A program made the translations under genes and the position numbers. The notes under the pieces were generated by a model. The model saw only the letters and a list, made by a program, of their open reading frames with translations. It was not told the DNA's origin and did not search any database. 64,000 nt of DNA from Candidatus Abyssobacteria bacterium SURF_5. GTDB lineage: Bacteria; Abyssobacteria; SURF-5. Of this stretch, positions 8,469 to 28,380 are shown piece after piece (the stretch's first letter is position 1; every line of letters starts with the position of its first letter). Where the stretch lies: positions 7,335 through 71,334 of the forward strand of contig QZKU01000026.1 in the NCBI GenBank assembly GCA_003598085.1, given 5' to 3'.

Positions 8469-9815
8469 TCATTTCCCGCTGACGACTACATCGGTGACGA
8501 GAAACGAGGGCGAGCCGTATCGGCTGTAGAATTTCAGGTTTCGCGCGACCGCCTCGATATTCATCAGGACATCCCTTACGTTGCCCGCAATGGTCGTCTC
8601 TCGCACGGGGAATGCAGGTTTTCCGTTCTCGATCCACAGCCCGCTTGCGCCGACTGAGAAATCGCCTGAGACCATGTCTATCGTGTGCATGCCCATCGCA
8701 TCGGTCACTAAAAAACCGCGCGAGCAGTTATCGCACAGATTGTCAGGATCGGTGTCGCCCGGAACAAGATAAAAATTCGTCGCGCCGACTTCGGGCGTCG
8801 ATGCATATGAGGAGCGGACGCCGTTGCCGGTTGATTCGGTGCCGCCTTTTGCCGCCGTATACGTGTCGTAGAGGAAGCCCTGCAGGACACCCGCCTCAAC
8901 CAGAACCGTCCGCTTCGAAGCTACTCCCTCTCCATCGGCCGGCGCGGGATACAGCCCGCGTTCAAACATGCCGTCATCTATAATCGTGACGTTCCGGTTT
9001 GCCATTTGCCTGCCGACTTTATCGGCGAACAGCGACTTGCCTTTCTGCACCTGGTCCGCCATGAGCGCGTGCCCGATTGCCGCAACGAACTCGGCCGCGA
9101 CCGGAGCATCAAGGATAATCGGAACCTTCGCCGTCTCGATTTGCCGCGCCCCGAGCAGACTGAGCGCGCGCCTGCTTGCATTCCTGCCGACAGGCGCGAC
9201 ATCGAGCGCGCTGAAATAGAAGGAGTGATCGAAATCCCACCCCATTTGGGCGTCTCCTCCTTCTTCAGCGACCACCATCACGCTCGCGGCGCATGAGGTG
9301 CCCCGACTCCACAGCGATATCCCCTTGCTGTTCGCCAGGTGCGCCTCATAGCTTGCATCTGAAGCGGTCGCCTGCCGGACCTTCGTTATCCGCTTGTCGA
9401 CTGCCCGCGCGGCGCCTTCGAGATTGAGCGCGCGCTCGATCCGGTCATCAAGTCCCACGTCTTTAAGCTGCTCGTCAAACTTCTCTATTTCTATATACCG
9501 CGGAGATGGCCTCGGAAGCACGTTGAATTCATCCGGAGAACTCGATTCCGCATTCGCCAGGGCTTGCCTGGCCGCCGATTCTATAGCGGAATTACCCAGA
9601 TCGGACGTATACGCAAACCCCAGCCGATTCGCGACAAGCACGCGCACTCCAATGCCCGAGCCTTCGCGCACCTTCTGGCTTTCAACCTTGCCGCCGCTCA
9701 CTTCGACCGAGACCGAGCTTGTCCGGTTGAAGAATCCTTCGGCCTCCGTGGCGCCGGCCGAAAGCGCCGCTTCAATGGCCAGCTTTACCTTTCGCTCATC
9801 CGATTTTCTCGTCAT
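8469..9815 (-). CDS. TldD/PmbA family metalloprotease
   Basis: 448 aa with typical PmbA/TldD N-terminal (KLAIEAALSAGATEAEGFF...SVSVEVSGGKVESQ) and C-terminal (GDFSVGASGLWIENGK) signatures. Confidence 0.8.
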   Translation of the reverse strand: MTRKSDERKVKLAIEAALSAGATEAEGFFNRTSSVSVEVSGGKVESQKVREGSGIGVRVLVANRLGFAYTSDLGNSAIESAARQALANAESSSPDEFNVLPRPSPRYIEIEKFDEQLKDVGLDDRIERALNLEGAARAVDKRITKVRQATASDASYEAHLANSKGISLWSRGTSCAASVMVVAEEGGDAQMGWDFDHSFYFSALDVAPVGRNASRRALSLLGARQIETAKVPIILDAPVAAEFVAAIGHALMADQVQKGKSLFADKVGRQMANRNVTIIDDGMFERGLYPAPADGEGVASKRTVLVEAGVLQGFLYDTYTAAKGGTESTGNGVRSSYASTPEVGATNFYLVPGDTDPDNLCDNCSRGFLVTDAMGMHTIDMVSGDFSVGASGLWIENGKPAFPVRETTIAGNVRDVLMNIEAVARNLKFYSRYGSPSFLVTDVVVSGK

Positions 9816-10612
9816 TGTTTCACCGCCTTCACGAGCTGCGAAACGAAGTGGGAAACCCGCTCGATAAGATCAGGGGCGGCCGCGTTCTCTTCGATTTTCT
9901 TCACTATCGCAGAGCCGACGACAACCGCATCGGCATACCCGGCAACCTCCGCCGCCAGCGCCGGATTCGAAATGCCGAACCCGACGGCGACGGGCATTCC
10001 CGAGCGGGTGCGAATTCTTTCGACCATCGAGGAAATGCCGCCGGCCATTTTCTCTTGAAAGCCGGTGACGCCCTCGCGCGAAACGTAATAGATGAATCCG
10101 CTGCTGAAGCGCGAGATCAGATCGATTCGCTCATCGGTGCTGGTCGGCGCGAGCAGATACACGGTGCTCAAGTCCTTCATATCCATGAGCGCCTTGTAAT
10201 CCTTCGATTCCTCCGGCGGCAGGTCAAGCACCAGCGCGCCGTCAACTCCCGCATCCGCCGCCTGCGCCACAAATGTCTCGATCCCGAGATGGTGAATCGG
10301 ATTGAAGTAGCTGAAGAAGATGATCGGTATCTGCGACTCCGCGCGGATCTGCTTGACCGTCTCCAGCACCTTTTTCAGCGTTGTCCCGCGATGGAGCGCT
10401 CGCTCGGCCGCCCGCTGATTAACCGCTCCATCGGCGAGCGGATCGGAAAACGGTATCCCCAACTCGACCAAATCCACTCCGATACGATCGAACTCGATAA
10501 CCAGCCTGCGCGTCGCCTCGAGCGTCGGGTCACCCGCAGTAATATACGCGATAAAGCCGCTCCGCCCGCTTCGCTTCAAAGCTTCAAATGTTTGCGCAAC
10601 GCGATTCTGCAT
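9812..10612 (-). CDS. trpA: Tryptophan synthase alpha chain
   Basis: FIAYITAGDP, VDLVELGIPFSDPLADG and GFGISNP motifs; 266 aa. Confidence 0.9.
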   Translation of the reverse strand: MQNRVAQTFEALKRSGRSGFIAYITAGDPTLEATRRLVIEFDRIGVDLVELGIPFSDPLADGAVNQRAAERALHRGTTLKKVLETVKQIRAESQIPIIFFSYFNPIHHLGIETFVAQAADAGVDGALVLDLPPEESKDYKALMDMKDLSTVYLLAPTSTDERIDLISRFSSGFIYYVSREGVTGFQEKMAGGISSMVERIRTRSGMPVAVGFGISNPALAAEVAGYADAVVVGSAIVKKIEENAAAPDLIERVSHFVSQLVKAVKQ

Positions 10613-11829
10613 TACCTGTCCTTGTTCGCGAGGATTTCAGAAACCACCTGCACGTCCTTATCGCCGCGGCCGCTGAGGTTTATGATGACGCTGTCCGCAC
10701 GGTTCATTTGCTGCGCGATTTTAACGGCATGTGCGACTGCATGCGAGCTTTCGAGCGCAGGAATAATGCCCTCGACCCTGCCCAGCAACTGAAAGGCGGC
10801 AAGCGCCTCTTCATCCGTGACCGCCGTATAGTCGATCCGTTTCCGGTCGCGCAGATAACTGTGTTCGGGTCCGACACTGGCATAGTCCAGGCCCGCAGAG
10901 ACTGAATGTGTCAACCCGATCTGGCCGTCGGCGGTCTGCAAAACGTAGCTCATGCAGCCTTGCAGAACCCCCAACTCGCCGCTCGCAAAACGAGCGGCAT
11001 GCTTTCCCGTGTCGATGCCGAGGCCGCCCGCCTCGACGCCGATCATCTTTACCTGTTCATCCTGCAGGAAATCGTAAAACAGACCGATCGAGTTGCTGCC
11101 ACCCCCAACGCACGCGATCAGCAGGGCCGGCAGCCTTCCTTCTTTCTCGAGAATCTGCCGGCGCGCCTCTTGCCCGATTACGCGCTGAAAATCGCGCACC
11201 ATCATCGGATACGGGTGCGCACCGAGAACTGAGCCGAGTATGTAATGAGTGGTGCGTACGTTCGTCACCCAGTCGCGCATGGCCTCGTTGATGGCATCCT
11301 TCAACGTCTTGCTGCCCGAATCGACCGGTGTCACTTTCGATCCGAGAAGACGCATGCGAAATACATTGAGCGCCTGGCGGCGCATATCTTCTTCGCCCAT
11401 GTAGATCTCGCATTCGAATCCGAAGAGGGCGGCAACCGTCGCCGTCGCGACTCCGTGCTGCCCGGCCCCCGTCTCCGCAATAATACGCGTCTTACCCATG
11501 CGCTTCGCCAGGAGCGCCTGCCCTACGGTGTTGTTGATCTTGTGAGCCCCCGTGTGACACAGGTCTTCGCGCTTCAAATATATTTTTGCGCCGCCGAGCC
11601 GTTCCGTCAAGCGGCGGGCGAAAAACAGAGGAGTGGGCCGACCGGCATACTCCGTTAGGTAGTACGAAAGTTCGCGCTGAAAATCCGGGTCTTCCTTGTG
11701 CGCTCGATACGCGTCTTCCAGTTCTTTGAGCGGCGACATCAGGGTCTCCGGAACATATTTGCCGCCATAGGGACCGAAGTGACCGCCGCTGTCAGGCAAC
11801 ATAGGATTTTGCCCTCCGAATGAAATCAT
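10612..11829 (-). CDS. trpB: Tryptophan synthase beta chain
   Basis: [25 protein letters not shown] (PLP lysine) and [10 protein letters not shown] motifs; 405 aa. Confidence 0.92.
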
Positions 11830-12418
11830 GCACTTTCTGGGGATCTTTCCAACCGGGTGAAGCCTCGATGCCGCTGGAGACGTCGACGGCGTCCGGCGAA
11901 GCGACTTTAATGGCTTCGGCCACGTTTTCCGGAGTCAGACCCCCCGAAAGAATGATCGGGCGCCCAAGCGTCTTCGCTTTCGTTGCGAGGGTCCAGTCAA
12001 AAACTTTCCCGGTGCCACCCGCCATTCCCGGCACTTTCGTATCAAGCAAAATATAAGCTGCCGAGGAGCGCTCAATGAGCTCCAAGTCCGCCTCCTTCGC
12101 CACCGAAACAACCCGGATGAATTGCGCCGGATGGAATCCGGCATACCAGATGCGCTCTTCGTCATCTCCATGATACTGAATGTAGTCGAGGCCGACCAGG
12201 TCGAATATGTCGCGGGCATAAGAAGGATCGGGCTCGACAAATACCCCCACCACCGATACGAACGGCGGCAGACGCCGCCGAATGGCTACTGCAGTCTCCG
12301 GCGCTACCTGTCGCGGGCTTGGGGCGAAGATAAGACCAACGGCGTCCGCTCCGTTTGCAGCGGCCCACAGAGCGTCCTCAAGATGGGTAACGCCGCAAAT
12401 CTTTACCCTAACCATCAA
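11792..12418 (-). CDS. trpF: Phosphoribosylanthranilate isomerase
   Basis: VKICGVT...GADAVGLIF (PRAI TIM-barrel signature); 208 aa; overlaps trpB and trpC. Confidence 0.85.
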
Positions 12419-17621: not shown

Positions 17622-18443
17622 TCAGCTTGAACGAGAAAAATCCGGTAACGAGCATCCGTTCTTGATGTAATTCACCGCATTCCGAAATACCGCCACGCCC
17701 ATTCCCTCGCGCGGGGTTTTTTCGCGGGTCCAGCGTGGATGATTGGTCTGAAAAAGGTACGCCTCCGGATGAGGCATCAGGCCGAAAATCCGGCCCGTCA
17801 AATCGCAGATGCCCGCAATGCCGTCTTGCGAGCCGTTGGGATTGTACGGGTATCCGTCTGCTTTCCCCTCTTCATCCACATATTGAAGCACGACGTGTCC
17901 GCCCGCGTGCAGCCGTTCGAGCACGGTTTCACTCGAAGTAACGAGCTTGCCCTCGCCATGACGGACGGGCAGGTACATTCTATCAATCCCTTTTGTGAAA
18001 ATGCAACGCGAATTCGGGTTCGCCGCCAGATAGACCCAGCGGTCTTCAAACTTGCTCGAATCGTTAAACGTCAGCGTCACCTGCTGATCGCCGTATTTCC
18101 GGTCGAGCGCCGGCAAGAATCCCATCTTGACAAGAACCTGGAAACCGTTGCAGATGCCGATGATCAATTTTCCGTCTTCAATAAAACGGAGCAACTGATC
18201 CCGCAGATGCTGTATCAGCTTGTTGGCGAGCACCTTGCCCGCGGCGATATCATCTCCGTATGAGAATCCGCCGGGAATCGCGAGAATGTCATAATCGCTT
18301 AATGATTTCCCGCCCGGCTCGATCAGGTCGTTCACGTGCACCCGCTCGGCGCGACCGCCGACCCGACGCATGTTAAAGGCATACTCGGTCTCATAATCGC
18401 AGTTGATGCCGTAGCCGGTAAGCACTAATACGCTTGGTTTCAT
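17622..18443 (-). CDS. purQ: Phosphoribosylformylglycinamidine synthase, glutaminase subunit
   Basis: Class-I glutamine amidotransferase with GICNGFQ (catalytic Cys) and HPE near the C-terminus; 273 aa. Confidence 0.85.
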   Translation of the reverse strand: MKPSVLVLTGYGINCDYETEYAFNMRRVGGRAERVHVNDLIEPGGKSLSDYDILAIPGGFSYGDDIAAGKVLANKLIQHLRDQLLRFIEDGKLIIGICNGFQVLVKMGFLPALDRKYGDQQVTLTFNDSSKFEDRWVYLAANPNSRCIFTKGIDRMYLPVRHGEGKLVTSSETVLERLHAGGHVVLQYVDEEGKADGYPYNPNGSQDGIAGICDLTGRIFGLMPHPEAYLFQTNHPRWTREKTPREGMGVAVFRNAVNYIKNGCSLPDFSRSS

Positions 18444-18478
18444 AATTCTAATTCAAAGATTTGATATAACCTTGAAAG

Positions 18479-20215
18479 CTAACTCTTAATAAATCTTTTG
18501 TAAAAGACCCAAGTGTTGTGAAAACCTCTCCGTTTATTACGATTTGCGCCTCTGAAAATGACAACATTGATTCCAATTTTTCGGCAGATAGGGCAATTAC
18601 ATCTTTCCCAAGGCTTCTCAGATAGAAGTTTTTCATATTTTTCAGCAAAATGATTGTCTTCACTTTGACGTTCTAACAAAGGTCCGTATCTATTTAATGC
18701 AATAAGAGTTTCTTCTGCTCCTTTTGGATTGTCTCCAAAAACACCCAAGGAGCGAAGACAATTTTCTTCAAGTATACGAGCTTTCTCTTTGGAAAGTTTC
18801 TTATCTGCTACGGCTTCCTGTATCGCTTTGGAATCACTAAACGGTACCCGAACGGCCGCATACCATGTTCCGTCAACCGCCAAATAATTTTGATCCGATC
18901 TTAGCCAAGCCTTCCGAAAATATGAGGCAGAATCAAAGCTAGATACTCCCAATGTGCGAAAAAATGGTTGTAGCTTGGGCCGAAGGATCCCAAATAGATG
19001 CAGCCATAAGTTTTCTTCGTGCCCTCTTGTTCGCTCTTGCAGAGCTTTCCTGACTGCGCCCACAATCTCGATTATTTCTGAATCAGAGCGTGGTACTAAT
19101 CCACCCAAAGCTATATGCCGATATCCCATATCTATGTACTGATGCAAGCAGGATATATAGGAGCGGACACCAACGCCCTGAATGACGCCCATAGGTATAA
19201 AAGAATAGTTCTTTTTCTTCCATAGTCCAATGAATTCAGCAGCGTTTTCTGTTGTCAGTTTTACTCTTTCGTACCTGGCAGATAGACTCAATATGCGCTT
19301 ACGTGAACTTCCATCTTTATGTTTTTTTACTATTTCTTGCAATGGTATATGGTCTACTGACGCGCCTATATCAAAGCCGTATTTGTGGTACATATCTAAA
19401 GCTTCCATTGTGGAAAAAGGAGGTTTACTCTCCGCTGTATATGAAAATGCCCCACAATCTCCAAACAGAAGCATGTTATCCGGGAGTTGTAGCACCTCTC
19501 TGAGGTTTCCAGATGAGCACCTCCCCTTGGCCATTCTATAAATTGCACCTTTACCCATATTCATGTGAGATAAACTTAAAAGCACGCCATCATAAGGGGC
19601 ATCTTTGCCGTATATTTCATGGGCGTATGCTTTACGAGACTCACCAGCCTTTATGGGTTCTTTGCCTTCGTCTGGAATAAATGGCTCATCAACGTAATCG
19701 TCCCAATCAGGAAAAAAATAAATATATGAGCGGATGCTTTTACCTTTTTTTTCGATAGATGCTGTCTTAGATGGCAGTTTTTCAAGCCATGATTTCATGG
19801 CTTTCATTTTCATGCCGATGGGTCCTTTTGCGTAAGTAAACTTCGCTTTTGGGAAGATTTTCTCAATCCCCCTGACCGCATTAAGATAATCTGCACCTAA
19901 ATTCAGGAATATACCCTCCGGCTGTGATAGCTTTTGAAGCGCTGATAGGACCCTTTTGTTAAATGATGTGGCAGAATGCGAGTCAAAACGCTGGTCGTAT
20001 TGACTTATTATAGTTGTAGCATCGATCAATCCATATTTGGCTGAGAGAATCTTAATCTGTAATCCCGGAGGCCAGCCTTTAACGAGAAGCATTTTTCTTA
20101 GAACTCGAAAGTTAACTCCATCATACAAGCACATGGCCGGAGCTTTTATTACCTGCGGTAATTTAGTTTTTGAACAGGCCACTATCAATAAGTGACCTTC
20201 GAGGTGAGTTGTCAT
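18479..20215 (-). CDS. TGT-family (queuine/archaeosine tRNA-ribosyltransferase-like, DpdA-like) base-exchange enzyme with a roughly 230 aa N-terminal domain of unknown function
   Basis: The C-terminal approx. 350 aa carry the TGT hallmarks. LFGDCGAFSY aligns to the TGT Asp-nucleophile loop (DSGGFQ). GVSSFDSASYF aligns to the second catalytic Asp loop (GxDMFDCV). The C-terminal zinc site CNCPICx22H matches TGT CxCxxC...H. The protein is Lys-rich, AT-rich codon usage; 578 aa. Confidence 0.72.
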   Translation of the reverse strand: MTTHLEGHLLIVACSKTKLPQVIKAPAMCLYDGVNFRVLRKMLLVKGWPPGLQIKILSAKYGLIDATTIISQYDQRFDSHSATSFNKRVLSALQKLSQPEGIFLNLGADYLNAVRGIEKIFPKAKFTYAKGPIGMKMKAMKSWLEKLPSKTASIEKKGKSIRSYIYFFPDWDDYVDEPFIPDEGKEPIKAGESRKAYAHEIYGKDAPYDGVLLSLSHMNMGKGAIYRMAKGRCSSGNLREVLQLPDNMLLFGDCGAFSYTAESKPPFSTMEALDMYHKYGFDIGASVDHIPLQEIVKKHKDGSSRKRILSLSARYERVKLTTENAAEFIGLWKKKNYSFIPMGVIQGVGVRSYISCLHQYIDMGYRHIALGGLVPRSDSEIIEIVGAVRKALQERTRGHEENLWLHLFGILRPKLQPFFRTLGVSSFDSASYFRKAWLRSDQNYLAVDGTWYAAVRVPFSDSKAIQEAVADKKLSKEKARILEENCLRSLGVFGDNPKGAEETLIALNRYGPLLERQSEDNHFAEKYEKLLSEKPWERCNCPICRKIGINVVIFRGANRNKRRGFHNTWVFYKRFIKS

Positions 20216-21033
20216 TTTTTGTAAATGAATTTGCGCTTGTAATTGTTGGTTAAGTTAAATTGATTATTCGCTAAAATTAAATGTGGAAGTTCCTCAAAGG
20301 ATGATATTGTAAAATGTGGACAAATATCCCTTACCGCCGGCATCCAAAATGGCTGAAAGCCACCAGCGAAATAGATAGTGTAGAATCCAGCTTCCTTAGC
20401 AGGCGCTATATCTCGATCAAGCTGGTCTCCGACCATGTAATTTGACTGAGATGCAACATCAAATTCTGCAAGGATCTCTTGATATATCCTCACTTCTTTC
20501 CTTGCAACTAGGATTTTGTGGATGTAATTAGAAAGCTCATACTTATTCAGTAATAATTTGCACTTATCCCGGTTACCTTCCGTTAGGATAACCAGAAGCC
20601 CACCTCGCTGGTGTAATTTCTTTACGCCCTGACGCACCCCAATCCGTAATGGCGGAATTTCCGATTTCAGTTTTTTAATGAACAGCATCTCCATTTCGTT
20701 AATAAAATCTCGGCCCAGCACATCTGTTCCTGTTCTTACTGCTTCTCTCACCGACACGAGGGGAGAATGTCCCGTCAGAGCTAGGGCTAGGGCATTTATT
20801 AGCAATCGCGCAGGATATTCCAAATTATAATTATGCAGTCGCGCTAAATTTTGATCCATCCTTCTCAGAAACGAAAGCTTATCATCCGAGGGAGCAGTAA
20901 CCTTCAAATGCTTTTCGATCTCGGAAAGCAAAATCAATTGGCTTTTCGCATACACCAAATCAGTATCCCATAATGTATTATCTGCATCCAAGACCACTAG
21001 CACTTCTCGGTTCCTTTTAGATTTTGCCTTCAT
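20212..21033 (-). CDS. HAD-superfamily hydrolase/phosphatase. The track ORF extends to 21129; the start is placed at Met MKAKSKRN to avoid overlap with the upstream gene
   Basis: HAD motif I VVLDADNTLWDTD (DxDxT), motif II ILTEGN, conserved Lys, and motif IV GDQLDRD; 4-nt overlap with the TGT-like gene. Confidence 0.72.
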   Translation of the reverse strand: MKAKSKRNREVLVVLDADNTLWDTDLVYAKSQLILLSEIEKHLKVTAPSDDKLSFLRRMDQNLARLHNYNLEYPARLLINALALALTGHSPLVSVREAVRTGTDVLGRDFINEMEMLFIKKLKSEIPPLRIGVRQGVKKLHQRGGLLVILTEGNRDKCKLLLNKYELSNYIHKILVARKEVRIYQEILAEFDVASQSNYMVGDQLDRDIAPAKEAGFYTIYFAGGFQPFWMPAVRDICPHFTISSFEELPHLILANNQFNLTNNYKRKFIYKK

Positions 21034-21053
21034 ATGAACCCTACTTGAAAAAG

Positions 21054-21746
21054 CTACAATGTCTCTGGGAAAACAAACATCAATCCACAAATGACTATCC
21101 ACAAAACAAAAACGATTGTACTTAGCCACAACATAAAAACCCCCAGTTGAAGGGTTTGCAGCTTAATTCGAATTTTATAAGCTATTAAATAAGCCTCATG
21201 AATGTAATGCTTTATATACAGCAATTGAAGTTGATTACTGCAATTGTCGCAAAATGCTGCTGCCCAACCTCTGGGGGTAGCCTCAATTATCTTTGGAAAG
21301 AACAGGAAGGAGGCTGGATTTTTCAAGTCTGCACTTTTCGGAGGTGAACCTTTCGACCAATCATGAGGTACGTTAAATCGTGGTCTAACTGACCAAATTA
21401 TGAAAGAAGCTCCTGAAACTACCAACAGACAGAAGAGACCGAATACGGAATAGAAAAGCCACAATGTCCAACTCCACATTTGATAATTCATCAATGACCC
21501 ATTGTCGTCTTTGGGAAGAAGAGCCACAAAAATTGCTCCTGCGAGAGCGCTTAAGAACGCGGTTGCTGTCAATATCCGGTTGGCCTTTTCGTCTTCATAT
21601 TCCGTAAGGTGCTTTACCTCCTCGAAAGAGGTTTTCGCAAAACTTAGCAGAGCACCAAGGTCTTCTCTTGCAGGATCAAGATTCTTCAGTTCTGAAAATA
21701 TGGGCTCTGAAATCTTCCGGCTTTCAGAAGGGCTAGCCTTAGCCAT
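21054..21746 (-). CDS. Small integral membrane protein (about 60 aa cytoplasmic N-terminus plus 3 predicted TM helices), a candidate membrane effector of the island
   Basis: Hydrophobic segments ILTATAFLSALAGAIFVALL, WTLWLFYSVFGLFCLLVVSGASFIIW and LGVFMLWLSTIVFVLWIVICGLMFVF; no enzymatic motif; AT-rich. Confidence 0.5.
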   Translation of the reverse strand: MAKASPSESRKISEPIFSELKNLDPAREDLGALLSFAKTSFEEVKHLTEYEDEKANRILTATAFLSALAGAIFVALLPKDDNGSLMNYQMWSWTLWLFYSVFGLFCLLVVSGASFIIWSVRPRFNVPHDWSKGSPPKSADLKNPASFLFFPKIIEATPRGWAAAFCDNCSNQLQLLYIKHYIHEAYLIAYKIRIKLQTLQLGVFMLWLSTIVFVLWIVICGLMFVFPETL

Positions 21747-21791
21747 TGATCTCTTTGTCCCTCCCTTGTCTTCCGTTATTCCTTCTCATTA

Positions 21792-22976
21792 TTATGGGAC
21801 TGTTGGCTTGGATTGCTTTTGAGCAGGACAAAAATTCTTGAAATCACATGCTGTGCAGGTTCTAATATTCTGATTAGTCTTCCAGCATTTTCTGATAGCT
21901 ACTCCAGCAATTTCTGCAAGCACGGAAGCCTCAATTTCTTCAACAGTTTGATCAAATCTGGATAAACTAGCTCCTATCGCACTTTTATTCACGGGAATAA
22001 TTCTTATTGAGCGATTTTCTTTGAACGTCCTAGAAAGACTAGGTAAATTGCTGCGTCGGTTCCAGCGTTGGATATTTTCTAGGTCCTTGCCTGTTGCCAT
22101 TATATCAGTTTGGCCTTGGTTGATATCGTTCTTAAGTGCTAGCATATCTTCAATTGATAAAGCTAATTCATTTATATATATGAGTATACCCGCTATTATT
22201 TGCTTTGCGCCCACCTGTTGTGATCGTAGCCAGGAATAGGTGAGAATCTGCCATTCGTGATGTTTCCACGTTTCGTCAACAAAAGAAGGGCGGCGCATGC
22301 CTTTGTAATCGACAATGATTTCATATTCATCAAGGGAAGAAACTTTGAAGTAATGCTGAACATCTGAATGCTGATTCAAATAATGCAGAAGCAGACTTCC
22401 AGATGGAGCATTTACAATGCTAACAGAGCTTATGACATCAATAACGCCCTTCATTCCATAATAATTTGATCTGCTAAGATTGGGATGATAACTTGGCATG
22501 TCTCGACTGCACTTCAATTTCACTTCTGCCTCGGCAATTATTGGAAACAGATGCATTCCCCATGTGTTTATGGCCATTTCTGCTCGCTGGCTAGCAATAA
22601 GTTTATGTGGATGATTGGCGTCGGGACAAAACCCTGGTGTCGTTGCAGAAGAATCAAATGGACAAAAAAGATTTGGCGGAGGTGGAAGACCTCTCGCGAT
22701 CAATCTATCATTAATTTGCGCTTCGACATTACGGATGTCTGATTCCCATAGCCACGGAAATCTTCTCTTTTTTGGCTCGTCACGCCATTCACGATACGCC
22801 TCTTCCATCAATCCATGGATAAATTCACCAAACCACAACTGAACCGGAGTCGATGGTGGGAGGGACCCTTTATTGTAATATCTATACTGAAGGCCGCATG
22901 TTAAGAATGCCAACAAGTCACCCGTCAAGCTGTATTCAGGAATACTATACGGTTTTGGTCGTACAGAAAGAAACAT
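21792..22976 (-). CDS. Cas4/RecB-like PD-(D/E)xK nuclease with a 4Fe-4S cluster cysteine set
   Basis: N-terminal C...YRYY motif (LTCGLQYRYY) typical of the Cas4/AddB nuclease domain. Core MKGVIDVI (Asp) plus IVDYKG (D-x-K). C-terminal Cys triad CTACDFKNFC. 394 aa. Confidence 0.68.
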   Translation of the reverse strand: MFLSVRPKPYSIPEYSLTGDLLAFLTCGLQYRYYNKGSLPPSTPVQLWFGEFIHGLMEEAYREWRDEPKKRRFPWLWESDIRNVEAQINDRLIARGLPPPPNLFCPFDSSATTPGFCPDANHPHKLIASQRAEMAINTWGMHLFPIIAEAEVKLKCSRDMPSYHPNLSRSNYYGMKGVIDVISSVSIVNAPSGSLLLHYLNQHSDVQHYFKVSSLDEYEIIVDYKGMRRPSFVDETWKHHEWQILTYSWLRSQQVGAKQIIAGILIYINELALSIEDMLALKNDINQGQTDIMATGKDLENIQRWNRRSNLPSLSRTFKENRSIRIIPVNKSAIGASLSRFDQTVEEIEASVLAEIAGVAIRKCWKTNQNIRTCTACDFKNFCPAQKQSKPTVP

Positions 22977-22982
22977 TTGCTC

Positions 22983-25331
22983 CTACCTCAAATGTGTCAG
23001 GTTTTGTAGTCCCCTGCCCCAATGCCAGGTATTACCTCTATCCCATCCGGTGCCGATATTGCGGATTCTATTTTTGACGGCATTCAGCCCAACTAGCAAG
23101 AGGACATCCTGAGCTCTACTGAAGGCAACAAAGTAATGTCTAATAAGATCGTCAAATGCTCTATCAAGGGATGAACGTGTTGACGTTCCCAAGGGAGAAA
23201 ACTGCCTCAATTCATCTTCAATCTTACATGTTTTGCCGCCATCTCTTGGGAATCTCTTAAAAGCCTGTCGCCAGTGATTTATCCTAAAATCACTTCCTAC
23301 ATCTACAATTACAAATGGGAATTCCAGTCCTTTTGCCTGATGAATTGACATGATATTAACTCTGTCGCTAGGAAGCGTATCAAGTAGGTCCTCATTGACT
23401 TCTATGGCTCCGCTGGCTAATGGAACAAAGATGTTCCAAAGCGCCTCTTTAACAAAAGCGTGCTCTAGACGGATATCGGCCTTATTTGGGTCGAATAGGA
23501 TTTCTGCTCCGAAGCTTCCAAACAAACCACTCTGATTGATGGATCTAGTTATAGCTTCAAGATAAACCAATCCTTCTATGTCGTCTTGCATGCTAGGTAT
23601 CCAAGTCACAAGCTTATAAACTAGATCATTCAGTGGGACTCTCTCCTTTTTCTGAATTCTTCTCCCCAGAGGAATTCGAGATTGCCAAGATTGAACGAAC
23701 TGTTGAAGATGTTCCTTGTTTGCGAGGTGGTTATTATTGACATAACCCATGGCATGGTCACGCCACGAGTTGAATGTGTTGGCCGCTGTCGTCGGCAGAT
23801 TTGTTAAACTCTTTTGAACGGAACTCCATGGATCAACACATTCCAGAATTAGACCACAAAGCACTTGCACTTCTGGAATTTGTTGAAGGGGACATCCGCG
23901 TGGATTAAAAACTTCAATTCGGGGCGATGCTTCATGTAGTTCAGTTCGTAGGAGAAAGGGAAGTCGCGGTCTATCAGAGTAATCAAATTCTTGCGGAGAA
24001 GAACATAACAAGGCAATATCACCGAGAGAGCCATCTTTGTTCAGCTTAATCGTAGCTGCCTGTCCTTTTTGGGGGATCCGCAGACCTTGTCCTCTCGACA
24101 CTTCTTCAATGAGTACAGCCAAATCATGAGCTAACGATCCGACGTCGTCTCTAAACATACCTAGAATTGGACATTCTTGTGGTTCTGGAATTTGCCGTAC
24201 GTGTTTAATTTTAGGTTTAGAGTTTACGCGAGCTTTCTGAAATTGCTGATCCAAGCCAATGAAGTTATTTATAAATTCTACGATAGTCGGAGTCGACCGA
24301 TAATTTAAAGAAAGATATTTTGGAACTGGTTTGAGATTTAAACATTTGGCCATTCTCTTTTCGAACGACCGAAATAATTCTACTGTTGCACCGCGAAAGC
24401 GGTAAAGCGATTGATCGTCATCTCCGACAACAGTAATGCTTCCCTTGTTAATTAAGGCAGCACGTGTCAATTCAAAGTATATCTTCTCTTGAAGTAGGTT
24501 TGTGTCCTGATATTCATCTATTAGGACGAACTTTATATTTTGAAGAAAGGAGTTTAACTTTTGGGAAAGAATTTGTTGAAAAAACTCTGCTTCTAATTTT
24601 GCAAAATCGTACAAAAGCTTCTTCTGTAATTCTTGATTATATGCAGTGATGGCATCACACGCAATTTGTGCTCCCAAATGCTGAGCCTTCCGTTGGAATG
24701 CAGAAATATCTATTTGGTCATGAAAGAAACGGTCTTTAATTTCTCTTAAAGTAGAACTTAACTCAGGAACATTTAACCCGAAGGTTCCACCTCTTAAAGA
24801 AGCAACATAATTCAGCAGATTTGGGTCCTTGTATCTGCCATTGGAAAAAAGGCCAGTCCGCATCATCAAGGCATTTGAAACAAAATCTTGGACTACGATT
24901 GGCGCAGGAGCACCAGGAGCGCGATAATTTCCTAAAGTCTCTTCAGCTATGCTGTCCAGAGTTCCTGTAATAATCCTGTTGAAATCTAGTGACTTCAACC
25001 TTGATCTTAACTTCTCGTATGATGAATCCTTTAGGAAAGCAGCACGAAGTTGGTCTCCCCATCCTAGAATCCTTGACCTAAGTTCAGCGGCAGCTTTACG
25101 GGTAAAGGTGGTAACCAATACATTCGAGGGGTCCATTTCATCAAGATATATTAACTTCAGCACTCTAAGTGTAATGACAGTTGTCTTACCACTGCCCGGT
25201 CCCGCGATAAGATAAAGCGAGGAACCTTGAGCAGCCTTAATCGCTTCATATTGGCTAAGATTTTTTTCTTTTCGTATGTCTCTCTGAATGAAGGTCAATA
25301 CGGCTTTTTCAAAATCGGGCCAACTAATCAT
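22983..25331 (-). CDS. UvrD/Rep/PcrA-like superfamily-1 DNA helicase
   Basis: Walker A AGPGSGKT, Ia VTTFTRKAAAEL, motif II VLIDEYQDTN, III VVGDDDQSLYRFRGA, IV LSLNYRSTPTIVEF and VI IHQAKGLEFPFVIV; 782 aa; 6-nt gap to the nuclease gene. Confidence 0.88.
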   Translation of the reverse strand: MISWPDFEKAVLTFIQRDIRKEKNLSQYEAIKAAQGSSLYLIAGPGSGKTTVITLRVLKLIYLDEMDPSNVLVTTFTRKAAAELRSRILGWGDQLRAAFLKDSSYEKLRSRLKSLDFNRIITGTLDSIAEETLGNYRAPGAPAPIVVQDFVSNALMMRTGLFSNGRYKDPNLLNYVASLRGGTFGLNVPELSSTLREIKDRFFHDQIDISAFQRKAQHLGAQIACDAITAYNQELQKKLLYDFAKLEAEFFQQILSQKLNSFLQNIKFVLIDEYQDTNLLQEKIYFELTRAALINKGSITVVGDDDQSLYRFRGATVELFRSFEKRMAKCLNLKPVPKYLSLNYRSTPTIVEFINNFIGLDQQFQKARVNSKPKIKHVRQIPEPQECPILGMFRDDVGSLAHDLAVLIEEVSRGQGLRIPQKGQAATIKLNKDGSLGDIALLCSSPQEFDYSDRPRLPFLLRTELHEASPRIEVFNPRGCPLQQIPEVQVLCGLILECVDPWSSVQKSLTNLPTTAANTFNSWRDHAMGYVNNNHLANKEHLQQFVQSWQSRIPLGRRIQKKERVPLNDLVYKLVTWIPSMQDDIEGLVYLEAITRSINQSGLFGSFGAEILFDPNKADIRLEHAFVKEALWNIFVPLASGAIEVNEDLLDTLPSDRVNIMSIHQAKGLEFPFVIVDVGSDFRINHWRQAFKRFPRDGGKTCKIEDELRQFSPLGTSTRSSLDRAFDDLIRHYFVAFSRAQDVLLLVGLNAVKNRIRNIGTGWDRGNTWHWGRGLQNLTHLR

Positions 25332-25350
25332 AGATGCACTTTTTACAACC

Positions 25351-28300
25351 TCACCAGTTCAGCGGCTGCTGCCATGCCCGCTTCAATTGGAATATATCGG
25401 CTGAAAGGATCTTTTGTCTGCCATTTTTCAAGACCAGGAGTGGAGATCGTGTTACTTTTCCCGCTCTGGCAAATGGGACTCCATCCATCATTTGTTCAAA
25501 CTCTTTCGCTTTTCGAGGAGGAACAGTTATCACGAACCGGCTCTGGGACTCGGAGAATAGCAGGTAATCGGCGCGCAGAGGTTCAGGCTGCGGAACGGCG
25601 GACAGATCGGCCGTGATGCCGAATCCGCCGGCAAAGGCGCTTTCCGCAAGCGCGACTCCGAGACCGCCGTCGGAGCAGTCGTGGCACGAGGCGATCAGGC
25701 GGCGATCGATCGCATCCGATACTCTTGAATAAATCTGTCTTGCAAGCTGAGAATTCACCCGCGGTACTGAATTCCCGATGAACCCGTGGTGCGCGAAGTA
25801 TTCGCTGCCGCCCAGTTCATTCTTCGTCACGCCGACCACGTATACGAGGTGGCTTGGCCGCTTCACGTCCATCGAAACGACTTTGCGCACGTCCTCGATC
25901 CGCCCGAGCACCGAGAACAGGAGCGTGGGCGGCACCGATATCTTGATGTCGCCGATCATGTAATCGTTCTTCATGCTGTCCTTGCCCGAGATGCAGGGAA
26001 CATCGTACGCCGTACAATAGTCGTAAAGCGCCATGTTCGAACGGACAAGCTGCGCGAGTTTGTAGTACCCGTCGGGCGTCTTCTCCGATTGCACAGGATC
26101 GGGCCAGCAGAAGTTGTCGAGTCCGGCCAGATACCCAAGCCGGCCGCCGACAGAAATCGCATTTCTCACCGCCTCGTCGATAGCGCAGGCGGTCATGTGA
26201 TATGTGTCGAGGTCGCTGTAGCGCGGGCAGATGCCGCTCGCAACGACCACGCCTTCATATGAATCATACAGAGGCTTCAGGACGGCTGCATCGCCGGGCC
26301 CGTCATTGGAGCTGCCGATAAACGGCTTGAGCGCGCTCAAGCCCTGGACCTCATGATCGTATTGCCGTACAAACGACTCTTTGCTGCACACGTTCAGCCG
26401 CGCCAGCATCTGCTCCAGCAAACGGTTGTAGTCCTGCGGCTCGGGAAGGTCCGGCTCTTCGTGCTTCGGCGCCTTCCAGCGCGCCTGCAAATTCATTCTC
26501 GGCACGCCCTCATGCAGGAAATCCATGTCGAGGTGAGCAACCACCTTACTTTCGTACAGAACCTCAAATTTGCCGGAATCGGCAAATGTTCCAAGCACCG
26601 TCGCTTCGACGTCGCGCCTCCTGGCCAGTTCGAGAAAGCGATCGATCTTTTCGGGATCAACCGCGAGCGTCATTCGCTCCTGCGCTTCCGATAGCAGGAT
26701 TTCCCACGGCTGCAGGCCCTTATATTTCAAGGGCGCCTTCTCAAGTTCGATCCGGCATCCGTTGGAGAAGCGCGCCATTTCGCCGACCGACGACGAAAGG
26801 CCGCCGGCGCCGTTGTCCGTGATCGCGCGGTACAATCCCAGATCGCGGGCCTCAAGCAGGAAATCGGTCATCTTCTTCTGCGTGATCGCGTCGCCGATCT
26901 GAACCGCCGACGTCGGCGACTCGCTGTGAAGTTCTTCGGATGAAAAGGTGGCGCCGTGAATGCCGTCCTTGCCGATCCGACCGCCGGTCATCACGATCAG
27001 GTCGCCCGGCAAAGCGGTCTTTTCATGCGCCGGCTCGCCGAGTATCTCCTTCGGCATGAGCCCGCCTGTCCCGCAGAACACGAGCGGCTTGCCCGCGTAA
27101 CGGTCGTCAAAGAGGATGCTGCCGTTGACATCCGGAATCCCGCTCTGGTTTGCGCCGTCGCGCACGCCACGGTGCACGCCCTTGAAGATGCGCTTCGGAT
27201 GGAGCAGGCGGGGCGGGAGAGGCTTGTCATAATCCGGTGGAGCGAAACAGAACGTGTCCACATTGAAAATCAGACGACACCCCTTGCCGGTGCCGAAAGG
27301 ATCACGGTTGACGCCGACGATGCCGGTTACCGCGCCGCCGTATGGATCGAGAGCTGACGGGCTGTTGTGCGTTTCCACCTTCATGACCAGGTTCCACCTG
27401 TCATTGAAGCGGATGACTCCGGCATTGTCGTGGAAAACCGATACCAGCCACGGAACCCGCTTGGAAATCTCGTCGGTCGAACGTCTGATATACGTCTTGA
27501 ACAGGCCGTTGATTTGGCGCCGGCCCTGTTCGTCCTCATAATCGATGAAGGCGTTGAATATCTTGTGCTTGCAATGTTCCGACCACGTCTGCGCAATGCA
27601 TTCCAGTTCGACGTCTGTCGGCTGATTCGAAAGTCCGTACCTGCTGCGATCGCGAATCGCGTTTTCGCTGCGAAAATAATTGCGGATCACCCGCATCTCA
27701 TCGAGACTGAGCGAAAGGATCCCCTCGCGGCTGATGCGTATCAGCTCCTGGTCGGACACAGCAAGATCGAAAGCCTTGACATGGACTGGCTGCGGTGTCC
27801 CTGCCAACGGAAGCGGGAGTGAGATGCCGCCGGAACGGCGGAATTCATCGGCGTCGGCGATGCGCCACTGTTCGATCAGGCCGTTGGCCAGCAGCCCGCC
27901 GGCGATTCTCTCAACCTGAGCCCGCTCCAGGCGGCCCCGCAAAACATATTGTTTGGCGGTGAAGACGGTGCTCCCGTCCGCGCGCTCTCCAAAGATATCG
28001 ATCATCGCCTCGCGCGAAGTCTTGCCTACATTATCGGTGACTCCGGGTTTGAAGCCGATTTCGATGACCCACGAGAAATCAGAGGCCAGAGGCTGGTCGA
28101 GCGTGGACACATCGATGACGGGATCGGCGAACAGGTGCGTGCGAAGCATGTCGGCGTCGTCGCATCTCAGGCTGGTCAACAGCGTGTATACCCGTATTAG
28201 CCGCGCGTCGTCGACGGCGATATGCAGGTCTTCCACGATATTTTTTCGAATGGCGTCGCCCGCGGCATCGAATTGATCGCGCCGCAGCCCGACTTCTATT

Positions 28301-28380
28301 CTGTAGGTATTAAGATCAATCACGGTTACCGCCGGTACTTTACCTTCCCTGTCCCCGAAACTATTCGCCCGATAGTCCAA
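25351..28380 (-). CDS. purL: Phosphoribosylformylglycinamidine synthase subunit PurL with N-terminal PurS-like domain(s) fused. The annotated start is TTG; an alternative GTG at 28323 sits 2 nt after the purM stop
   Basis: AIR-synthase-related domains (SFGDREG..., PurM-like repeats) with an N-terminus resembling PurS (KPGVTDNVGKTSREAMIDI); 1009 aa. Confidence 0.85.
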   Translation of the reverse strand: MDYRANSFGDREGKVPAVTVIDLNTYRIEVGLRRDQFDAAGDAIRKNIVEDLHIAVDDARLIRVYTLLTSLRCDDADMLRTHLFADPVIDVSTLDQPLASDFSWVIEIGFKPGVTDNVGKTSREAMIDIFGERADGSTVFTAKQYVLRGRLERAQVERIAGGLLANGLIEQWRIADADEFRRSGGISLPLPLAGTPQPVHVKAFDLAVSDQELIRISREGILSLSLDEMRVIRNYFRSENAIRDRSRYGLSNQPTDVELECIAQTWSEHCKHKIFNAFIDYEDEQGRRQINGLFKTYIRRSTDEISKRVPWLVSVFHDNAGVIRFNDRWNLVMKVETHNSPSALDPYGGAVTGIVGVNRDPFGTGKGCRLIFNVDTFCFAPPDYDKPLPPRLLHPKRIFKGVHRGVRDGANQSGIPDVNGSILFDDRYAGKPLVFCGTGGLMPKEILGEPAHEKTALPGDLIVMTGGRIGKDGIHGATFSSEELHSESPTSAVQIGDAITQKKMTDFLLEARDLGLYRAITDNGAGGLSSSVGEMARFSNGCRIELEKAPLKYKGLQPWEILLSEAQERMTLAVDPEKIDRFLELARRRDVEATVLGTFADSGKFEVLYESKVVAHLDMDFLHEGVPRMNLQARWKAPKHEEPDLPEPQDYNRLLEQMLARLNVCSKESFVRQYDHEVQGLSALKPFIGSSNDGPGDAAVLKPLYDSYEGVVVASGICPRYSDLDTYHMTACAIDEAVRNAISVGGRLGYLAGLDNFCWPDPVQSEKTPDGYYKLAQLVRSNMALYDYCTAYDVPCISGKDSMKNDYMIGDIKISVPPTLLFSVLGRIEDVRKVVSMDVKRPSHLVYVVGVTKNELGGSEYFAHHGFIGNSVPRVNSQLARQIYSRVSDAIDRRLIASCHDCSDGGLGVALAESAFAGGFGITADLSAVPQPEPLRADYLLFSESQSRFVITVPPRKAKEFEQMMDGVPFARAGKVTRSPLLVLKNGRQKILSADIFQLKRAWQQPLNW

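Follow-up and report, generated by a model that had tools for sequence, protein, structure and literature searches.

To our knowledge, the canonical Dpd system (dpdA-K of Salmonella Montevideo), with about 11 genes, is the largest known restriction-modification system. Its DpdC protein, which the literature assigns to DUF328/YaaA or DUF6884, turns preQ0-DNA into ADG-DNA, and its restriction arm consists of SNF2/DEAD helicases and a PLD nuclease. Phage DpdA systems (DpdA1-4, preQ0/G+) are reported to have a DpdA that works without DpdB and to be linked to preQ0 genes (PMC6884629, PMC10516641). BREX-related capture (BRC) systems (HerA/FtsK, GNAT and TGT, the last being tRNA-guanine transglycosylase) contain a DpdB- and DpdC-free TGT/DpdA homologue that, with a HerA-type translocase, is the proposed self-marking arm (PMC12839542). 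Here we describe a five-gene cassette in a 64,000-nucleotide stretch of DNA from the deep-subsurface organism Candidatus Abyssobacteria bacterium SURF_5 (assembly GCA_003598085.1, contig QZKU01000026.1, positions 7,335 to 71,334; this whole stretch is called the window). Judged by its predicted gene content, the cassette is a compact and previously undescribed relative of Dpd that is real, widespread and tractable and whose logic is Dpd-like. We lean towards reading it as a horizontally acquired, DpdB-independent restriction-modification system of Dpd type.

The cassette encodes the following proteins, listed with the two domains of the first:

18479-20215, minus strand: DUF6884 (DpdC-like)::DpdA fusion protein, 578 amino acids (aa) (NCBIfam, PADLOC, PDB and Foldseek matches)
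19793-20188, minus strand: DUF6884 domain, residues 10-141 of the fusion (Pfam accession PF21818, 40.6 bits, cut-off 30)
18491-19720, minus strand: DpdA (DNA-guanine transglycosylase) domain, residues 166-575 of the fusion (alignment to 7UI4)
20212-21033, minus strand: HAD-superfamily phosphatase, 273 aa from the ATG at 21033, in an open reading frame (ORF) open to 21129 (Pfam HAD_2 and Hydrolase)
21054-21746, minus strand: PycTM/DUF5706-like membrane protein, 230 aa (PADLOC PycTM, 7e-10, full length)
21792-22976, minus strand: Cas4/AddB-type PD-(D/E)xK nuclease with a predicted 4Fe-4S cluster, 394 aa (Pfam PDDEXK_1, 5e-10)
22983-25331, minus strand: UvrD/PcrA/AddA-like superfamily 1 (SF1) helicase, 782 aa (Pfam UvrD-helicase, 2e-45; AAA_19; UvrD_C)

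A preliminary description, made from the sequence alone, had named these five gene identities, and searches of Pfam, PADLOC and NCBIfam confirmed all of them. It had also seen an extra N-terminal domain on the TGT-like protein; this domain is DUF6884, of DpdC type, so that a putative DpdC equivalent is present as a fusion. Its statements that DpdB and queCDE/folE are absent from the cassette, that the cassette is not Gabija (there is no GajA, and the nuclease is PDDEXK_1/Cas4-like) and that the gene combination is not one known to it as a described system likewise hold. The absences extend to the whole 64-kb window, and no description of the gene set was found in the searchable literature, the coverage of which is incomplete, or in PADLOC-DB v2, which sees only the individual domains (DpdA, GajB, Cas4 and PycTM). 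Current defence finders would report an orphan ‘DpdA’ alone at this locus. Published genome mining for dpd islands demanded both dpdA and dpdB (PMC11888242) and would thus have skipped the fusion family.

The fusion protein scores 362.6 bits against the NCBIfam DpdA equivalog (NF041059, cut-off 200) and matches PADLOC DpdA at 2e-102. Its DpdA part can be aligned over its whole length to the crystal structure of DpdA, the DNA preQ0 insertase of Salmonella (PDB 7UI4, 1.5e-68), and the structural comparison suggested in the preliminary description returned DpdA 7ui4 as the top Foldseek match of the fusion model (2.6e-23). In the 7UI4 alignment, with the active site taken from PMC10164549, fusion residue D253 falls on Asp95 of S. 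Montevideo DpdA, D288 on Asp130 and D428 on Asp256; in that enzyme Asp95 is the acid/base and Asp256 the nucleophile (PMC10164549). G371-G372 correspond to DpdA Gly206-207, and DpdA His181 is replaced by Gln346. D253, D288, D428, G371-G372, C539, C541, C544 and H566 are invariant among 16 fusion homologues. The last four residues presumably represent the Cys/His pattern expected of a TGT-family zinc site; canonical DpdA has the same catalytic aspartates and zinc site. By sequence, the DpdA domain of the fusion is shown to be a DpdA-class enzyme with a complete predicted active site.

The DUF6884 domain carries invariant CxxxK (C14SKTK18) and LSAxxG (L57SAKYG62) motifs, the signature motifs of DUF6884 (PMC11701544). 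The same two motifs occur in the DpdC-type (DUF328/DUF6884) module of canonical Dpd, as CTKRK and LSAGLG in the canonical DpdC of locus L120 (PADLOC, 1.5e-39), which lies beside DpdA and DpdB equivalogs. The domain matches three PADLOC DpdC models weakly (7e-4 to 3e-3) and PDC-M57A at 1e-7, and its hhalign comparison with canonical DpdC is marginal (E 2.9e-4, probability 41%). Because this direct similarity is weak and the domain is about half as long, we call it DpdC-like rather than DpdC. No stand-alone DpdC was found in the cassette. The fusion suggests a function for DUF6884.

Homologues that are 53-61% identical to the fusion over the full length form at least 120 clusters (90% identity); Planctomycetota, Acidobacteriota and Bacillota are among the groups represented. 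The deposited annotation places the gene start 41 codons too far downstream, which gives a 537-aa protein without the invariant CxxxK motif; the alignment of homologues supports the ATG at 20215 as the start.

The helicase is of SF1A type and has intact motifs, including Walker A (GPGSGKT, K49) and motif II (DEYQD). Its PDB matches are UvrD1, PcrA, UvrD and AddA, and it matches PADLOC GajB/RTasHel at about 3e-34. No PDC-M57 partner for its C-terminal half was found among the PADLOC models. Orthologues with 41-43% identity adjoin the DpdCA fusion in most loci. The nuclease matches PADLOC Cas4 at 7e-7, and no solved relative was found for it in a PDB sequence search. Residues C27, C374, C377, C383, D180, D223-Y-K225 and Q243...Y247 are at least 95% conserved in a 19-sequence alignment; this pattern is the iron-sulfur (Fe-S) RecB-nuclease signature of Cas4/AddB. 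The catalytic motifs of both proteins are intact, and the helicase looks like an active enzyme.

AddAB/AdnAB likewise join an SF1A UvrD-like motor to a RecB-family nuclease, in which AddB, like Cas4, has a four-cysteine Fe-S cluster. These are core-genome systems of double-strand-break repair with nuclease domains fused to two large helicase-like subunits, whereas the cassette has a small stand-alone 394-aa nuclease, is horizontally mobile and is tied to a DNA-modifying enzyme. We rejected an AddAB repair assignment on the helicase's AddA equivalog score (135, cut-off 708), the stand-alone nuclease and the absence of the cassette from sister genomes. Gabija was rejected because there is no OLD/TOPRIM GajA, the nuclease is PDDEXK_1/Cas4-like and a modification enzyme is present, although the helicase does match PADLOC GajB (3e-34). 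A CRISPR Cas4 was also rejected: the nuclease scores 23.4 bits against TIGR00372 (cut-off 65), none of the five genes is a cas gene, and there is no CRISPR-like direct-repeat array in 18300-25500.

To compare gene neighbourhoods, we collected 42 loci of species genomes together with 74 metagenomic ones (cited below by L numbers, with positions after a colon). The samples were seeded by two peptide patterns and may under-represent divergent members. Full-length fusion genes are present in 51 loci, 37 of which have at least 4.2 kb downstream and are informative. Fusion, helicase and nuclease are co-inherited in 28 of the 37: the helicase and then the nuclease directly follow the fusion in 25, both lie upstream of it as in the window in two (L015, L022), and they are convergent to it in one (L076). 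Eight more (seven Poribacteria loci and L045) have NurA and HerA in place of the helicase and nuclease, and the flank assignment of the remaining locus (L092) is ambiguous. By contrast, where DpdA is unfused, a helicase or nuclease of this kind is present in only one of 33 loci. The conserved core, as predicted from these neighbourhoods, is thus three genes: fusion, helicase and nuclease. It is distributed in Planctomycetota, Poribacteria, Bacillota, Acidobacteriota, Deltaproteobacteria and Hydrogenedentota. Overall, about 60 related fused loci in at least seven phyla nearly always have an adjoining motor-nuclease pair. The conserved neighbourhood that the preliminary description had asked about therefore exists, both for the core and for the full set: the complete five-gene combination is seen again in six other lineages (L005/L117, L119, L122, L124, L127 and L128).

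The replacement of one pair by the other shows that the predicted motor-nuclease pairs, UvrD with Cas4-like or HerA with NurA, are interchangeable. Both kinds of pair are present together in several Poribacteria loci (L009, L010, L019, L067 and L068, also L022), and the helicase and nuclease fall into at least three diverged subfamilies. In Poribacteria and one metagenome contig (L009-L019, L022, L045, L067, L068), a NurA-like nuclease and a HerA ATPase flank the fusion (for example L011:6280-9892), and some of these loci contain an extra stand-alone DUF6884/YaaA-like ORF (L009:5821-6285, L015:5947-6510). In a Planctomycetia locus (L020:11737-18513), two diverged helicase-nuclease pairs stand in tandem behind one fusion gene.

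DpdB and stand-alone DpdC were found only in loci with an unfused DpdA, except in L021, where an unfused DpdA is present in addition to the fusion. No better argument is at hand than this complementary distribution for the view that the fused domain takes the place of DpdC and that DpdB is not used by the system. Within the window, a bona fide DpdB used as query (NF041060, 410 bits) gave no match. The cassette also differs from canonical Dpd in having a half-length DpdC-like part fused to the DpdA N-terminus, a core of three genes rather than about eleven, a restriction arm of UvrD-like helicase and Cas4-like Fe-S nuclease (HerA-NurA in relatives) instead of SNF2/DEAD helicases and a PLD nuclease, and none of DpdD-K; no PADLOC match to DpdD-K was among those listed, which for the helicase were the best 25 of 49 families. 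Since DpdB and DpdD-K are absent and DpdC is only partly matched, the cassette is not a canonical Dpd system. What the two share, beyond the DpdA and DpdC features described above, is a genomic-island location, a separate helicase and nuclease arm and, in relatives of the cassette, linkage to queD/E/C. The phage DpdA systems differ from the cassette in being protective modification only and in having neither a helicase-nuclease partner nor a DUF6884 fusion. The nearest published idea is that of the DpdB/DpdC-less TGT marking arms of HerA-centred BREX-related systems (PMC12839542). The Poribacteria variants with fusion and HerA-NurA share the HerA pairing with BRC, whereas the cassette has no PglZ, BrxC-like, STAND or GNAT component, its writer has DUF6884, and the usual partner of that writer is UvrD with a Cas4-like nuclease.

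The cassette fills 18444-25350, a foreign block of 6.9 kb that abuts the purQ start at 18443 on one side and the purL stop at 25351 on the other. Its borders and nearest flanks are:

25332-25350, no strand: upstream junction, 19-bp spacer from the purL stop to the helicase ATG
18444-18478, no strand: downstream junction, 35-bp spacer from the fusion stop to the purQ ATG
25351-28380, minus strand: purS-purL fusion gene (FGAM synthase), flank of host composition (Pfam AIRS, AIRS_C, FGAR-AT_linker and PurS)
17622-18443, minus strand: purQ, flank of host composition (Pfam GATase_5, 1.7e-84)

The five ORFs are intact and run in the same direction as the pur genes, with the minus-strand order purM, purS-purL, helicase, nuclease, membrane protein, HAD, DUF6884::DpdA, purQ, purH, purD. 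Guanine-plus-cytosine (GC) content is 41.4% in the block and 55.4% in the remainder of the window. Every 1-kb window inside the block has a GC fraction of 0.40-0.44, against a mean of 0.553 outside it (n=55, standard deviation 0.024, minimum 0.508), and the block is the sole low-GC island of the 64 kb. Third-codon-position GC (GC3) is 0.36-0.41 in the five cassette genes and 0.66-0.72 in purQ/L/H/M. As all five have the same foreign composition, they probably arrived together.

The SURF_5 lineage (‘Candidatus Abyssubacteria’) is described in PMC6121073. In two sister genomes the purL-purQ site lacks the cassette: in Abyssubacteria GCA_054680575.1 (L126) a 131-bp spacer separates purL from purQ, and in GCA_975965555.1 (L125, PurQ 83% identical) the spacer holds a single 125-aa PDDEXK_3 ORF (L125:5495-5872). 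Both have the synteny of the window (purF-purM-purSL-purQ-purH-purD-purE-trpD-trpC) and share the purS-purL gene; purQ orthologues in related genomes have 78-87% identity. The cassette is hence not core genome. The shift in GC and GC3 and the empty sister sites make it a true horizontally acquired insertion, and the purL-purQ spacer, with its different ORF in L125 and nothing in L126, seems to be a recurrent insertion site. The gene borders and this comparison confirm what had been read from the window alone, namely a block of about 6.9 kb placed exactly in the purL-purQ spacer. Of the compositions estimated at the same time, the roughly 40% GC of the block stood, and the roughly 60% of the flanks proved slightly too high (55-59%). 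A chimeric assembly was judged unlikely, as the junctions lie in short spacers between intact genes and the flanks keep the exact synteny of the sister genomes.

The cassette ends showed neither direct nor inverted flanking repeats, and no target-site duplication, tRNA or integrase was found there. Across window positions 1-64000 there were no tRNA genes and, at Rfam gathering thresholds, no RNA family, including preQ1, purine or ZTP riboswitches. Promoter counts were at chance level, and the terminator scan found none at either junction. As the junctions span no more than 19 and 35 bp, the cassette probably shares a transcript with the pur genes; such co-transcription is plausible from the gene arrangement.

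These data bear on whether the cassette is simply a housekeeping tRNA-guanine transglycosylase operon sited by chance among the pur genes. The NCBI family name (‘tRNA-guanine transglycosylase DpdA’) and a weak Pfam TGT similarity point that way. The Pfam TGT score, however, is below its cut-off, the matches to the DpdA equivalog and to the DNA preQ0 insertase 7UI4 are strong, the cassette is missing in sister genomes, and the fusion is nearly always linked with DNA motor-nuclease pairs. We therefore consider a housekeeping operon hardly credible, and the DpdA equivalog and 7UI4 evidence led us to reject tRNA-TGT as the family of the fusion.

A link to 7-deazaguanine chemistry comes from the relatives of the cassette. 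Of 51 fused loci, 16 contain a preQ0 gene, with QueD, QueE and QueC confirmed by Pfam; in 11 of 49 loci the gene immediately preceding the fusion is queD. In L005/L117, queD-queE-queC stand alongside all five cassette genes. This queD/E/C linkage ties the cassette type to 7-deazaguanine chemistry.

Other neighbours of the fused loci include genes for SNF2-NOV_C/DUF1156/HEPN-DUF499, TIR, TIR-SIR2, HepT, RES-Xre and PIN proteins as well as integrase and transposase genes, which, going by their predicted families, are typical of defence islands and mobile DNA. In a Bacillota locus (L001:200-9873) and a Planctomycetia locus (L020:357-9900), an SNF2 helicase with NOV_C, a DUF1156 methyltransferase and HEPN-DUF499 lie directly upstream of the fusion; this trio either works together with the fusion or is a BREX-related system that lies next to it. 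We found no copy of the fusion family in 2.9 million IMG/VR viral contigs, and a prophage or phage origin is for that reason unsupported.

The same families admit a reading as a DNA-repair module, in which the DUF6884/YaaA-like domain would read lesions, the TGT fold would act as a glycosylase or base exchanger, UvrD and the nuclease would excise, and the HAD protein would trim phosphates. YaaA binds DNA and belongs to the peroxide-stress response, YfjM of the DUF6884 family binds DNA with lesions (PMC11701544), and UvrD-like helicases and RecB-like nucleases are classical repair enzymes. Set against this are the patchy distribution, the foreign composition and the absence from sister genomes, the queD/E/C linkage, which indicates a preQ0 substrate, the high DpdA equivalog score with a conserved preQ0-type active site, and neighbours that are toxin-antitoxin, TIR and BREX-like genes. 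Repair seems to us very improbable as the function of the cassette.

The remaining two cassette genes encode a membrane protein and a HAD hydrolase. The membrane protein has a conserved HLTEYEDEKANRILTA motif, scores 19.1 bits against Pfam accession PF18967 (below its cut-off of 27.2) and also resembles CBASS 2TM effectors; a search returned 85 homologues, mostly PF18967. Its AlphaFold model (predicted local distance difference test, pLDDT, 86.6) consists of three long helices, and a fold search with it gave no PDB fold match, merely chance long-helix matches. The family is not among the known or candidate queuosine-precursor transporters (PMC11130926). The HAD protein matches HAD_2 (4e-10, 40.6 bits, cut-off 23.8) and Hydrolase (6.5e-9, 36.9 bits, cut-off 26.4), and its translation contains DADNT (DxDxT motif I) and GDQLDRD (GDxxxD motif IV), so that it too looks active. 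TIGR02253 and a YjjG-type non-canonical nucleotidase are its best NCBIfam matches, all below cut-off, with no equivalog reached. It has no PADLOC match, and a PDB sequence search gave generic HADs only.

All eight genomic contexts of the membrane-protein gene that we inspected, selected for long contigs, adjoin DpdA-based systems, canonical Dpd included. The HAD gene follows the membrane-protein gene in seven of the eight. With TM for the membrane-protein gene, the orders are queD-queE-queC-TM-HAD-fusion-helicase-nuclease in L117/L118 (the same lineage as L005), queD-TM-HAD-fusion-helicase-nuclease in L119, fusion-queD-helicase-nuclease-TM-HAD in L127 and fusion-helicase-nuclease-TM-HAD-queD in L128. 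In L122 a YhhQ-type preQ0 transporter gene precedes TM-HAD, convergent on nuclease-helicase-fusion, and in L124 TM-HAD is divergent from fusion-helicase-nuclease-queD. The same pair also adjoins canonical DpdB-DpdA-DpdC (L120/L121). In the remaining context (L123:8001-9906), the membrane-protein gene is followed not by HAD but by Q_salvage (Qng1/DUF2419; Pfam, 7e-50), beside DpdD, a PLD protein and DpdG. In the window and in L119, L120, L123, L124, L127 and L128, the two genes overlap, the stop of the first with the start of the hydrolase gene, which suggests translational coupling. The unbiased sample of fused loci contains the pair rarely (in L005; in L082 only the membrane-protein gene is present, at the end of the contig), and we regard the two genes as a rarer accessory pair that, by gene neighbourhood, is outside the conserved three-gene core. 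Their conservation reveals a membrane protein and a nucleotide hydrolase as companions of 7-deazaguanine DNA systems.

Qng1 frees queuine from queuosine-5'-monophosphate (PMC9881137). Because the HAD protein is nucleotidase-like and Qng1 takes its place in L123, the common role of the pair may be the processing of 7-deazapurine nucleoside monophosphates; the Q_salvage swap suggests that the partner enzyme acts on 7-deazapurine nucleotides.

Alternatively, the pair could be a separate nucleotide-gated abortive-infection effector resembling Pycsar PycTM, in which the HAD or Qng1 enzyme would set a 7-deazapurine nucleotide signal. Several observations fit such an effector: the membrane protein is similar over its whole length to PADLOC PycTM (7e-10) and to CBASS 2TM effectors, its model is not transporter-like (three long helices, no PDB match), and the pair, present in about 3% of fused loci and hence dispensable to the core, also adjoins canonical Dpd systems. 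On the other hand, the cassette has no cyclase or other signal-making enzyme, the YjjG-like HAD and Qng1 partners are of salvage or house-cleaning types, a YhhQ-type preQ0 transporter gene adjoins the pair in L122, and the Pfam PycTM score is below the gathering cut-off. An effector role is possible but on balance unlikely. Pycsar itself was rejected, as none of the five genes encodes a pyrimidine cyclase and the membrane protein falls below the Pfam cut-off; the cassette shares with it the full-length match to PycTM profiles and differs in the HAD or Qng1 partner of the membrane protein and in the DpdA systems that adjoin it in all eight contexts.

Five-gene orders in the window (18479-25331), L005:7916-15283, L127:2113-9604 and L128:2688-9490 can be turned into one another by rotating a single ring (fusion, helicase, nuclease, membrane protein, HAD). 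Such cyclic permutations could stem from a circular intermediate or from a tandem duplication that was then partly lost. The sister metagenome contig of L117, L118:2720-10558, carries the same eight-gene island with 100% protein identity, and its queE, HAD and helicase genes are interrupted, either by decay or by assembly error.

If the cassette is a Dpd-type restriction-modification system, its DpdA domain would swap guanine in double-stranded DNA for preQ0, a queuosine precursor, as equivalog-level homology and intact catalytic aspartates suggest. The DUF6884 domain might then act on the inserted base as DpdC does, converting preQ0 to the 7-amido form; alternatively, it might aid DNA binding and base flipping. 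With no DpdB, the writer may be ATPase-free, as phage DpdAs are thought to be, or the neighbouring motor may unwind the DNA for it. The UvrD-like helicase and the Cas4-like Fe-S nuclease would form an AddAB-like unit that degrades unmarked DNA; we infer this restriction role from their co-inheritance with the fusion and from the interchangeable HerA-NurA of other lineages. The membrane protein and the HAD hydrolase would be a translationally coupled pair specific to 7-deazaguanine DNA systems and would most likely handle 7-deazapurine nucleoside monophosphates, conceivably in base salvage or in cleaning of the nucleotide pool; otherwise they might serve as a back-up effector. Host genes outside the window would supply preQ0. 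Comparative genomics (co-inheritance in 28 of 37 loci) thus favours, at the level of predicted function, the self-marking by base exchange coupled to helicase-nuclease restriction that the preliminary description had put forward.

Several points weigh against this reading. The one bacterial DpdA that has been studied in vitro cannot insert preQ0 without DpdB (PMC10164549), which is absent here, and no queC, queD, queE or folE2 was found within the 64-kb window. The DUF6884 domain has about half the length of DpdC and only marginal similarity to it. The helicase and the nuclease belong to families that also serve repair. What is known of PycTM-type proteins is that they disrupt membranes as effectors rather than take part in metabolism, and the salvage role may be wrong. 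Finally, the source is a metagenome-assembled genome.

The dependence of S. Montevideo DpdA on ATP hydrolysis by DpdB (PMC10164549) also bears on a reading as modification without restriction, in which the helicase (or HerA) would open DNA for DpdA in place of DpdB, the nuclease would be auxiliary, and the host or a mobile element would be protected from other restriction-modification systems. Fused loci lack DpdB (save L021, with its second unfused DpdA) and nearly always contain a motor ATPase, and 7-deazaguanines are reported to shield phage DNA from restriction (PMC6884629). A predicted intact Fe-S RecB-type nuclease, or NurA, nevertheless accompanies the motor in essentially every locus, as would be expected of a restriction arm more than of a loader; the viral contigs contained no copy of the system, and its neighbours are typical of defence islands. 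We consider modification alone distinctly unlikely. The modification-only and restriction roles are not mutually exclusive.

A bolder form of the Dpd-type restriction-modification reading would make the three-gene core a self-sufficient, DpdB-independent 7-deazaguanine system in which the invariant Cys-Lys of DUF6884 makes dADG or a new derivative from inserted preQ0. The PycTM-like protein with HAD or Qng1 would then add a second layer of immunity, as a membrane effector gated by 7-deazapurine nucleotides from degraded marked DNA, self or phage. We hold this combination to be quite unlikely; if true, it would for the first time connect the modification of DNA bases with a nucleotide-gated abortive-infection effector. 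In either form, the three-gene version found in nature could offer far simpler means of studying how a restriction arm reads 7-deazaguanine and why DpdA needs DpdB (PMC10164549).

Among the loci with unfused DpdA, three from Sorangium (L024, L026 and L027, at about 8769-12400) contain two to three tandem DpdA paralogues together with DpdB, a DpdC-like protein, FolE2, QueC, QueE and QueD. These loci are an unusually expanded canonical dpd modification cluster.

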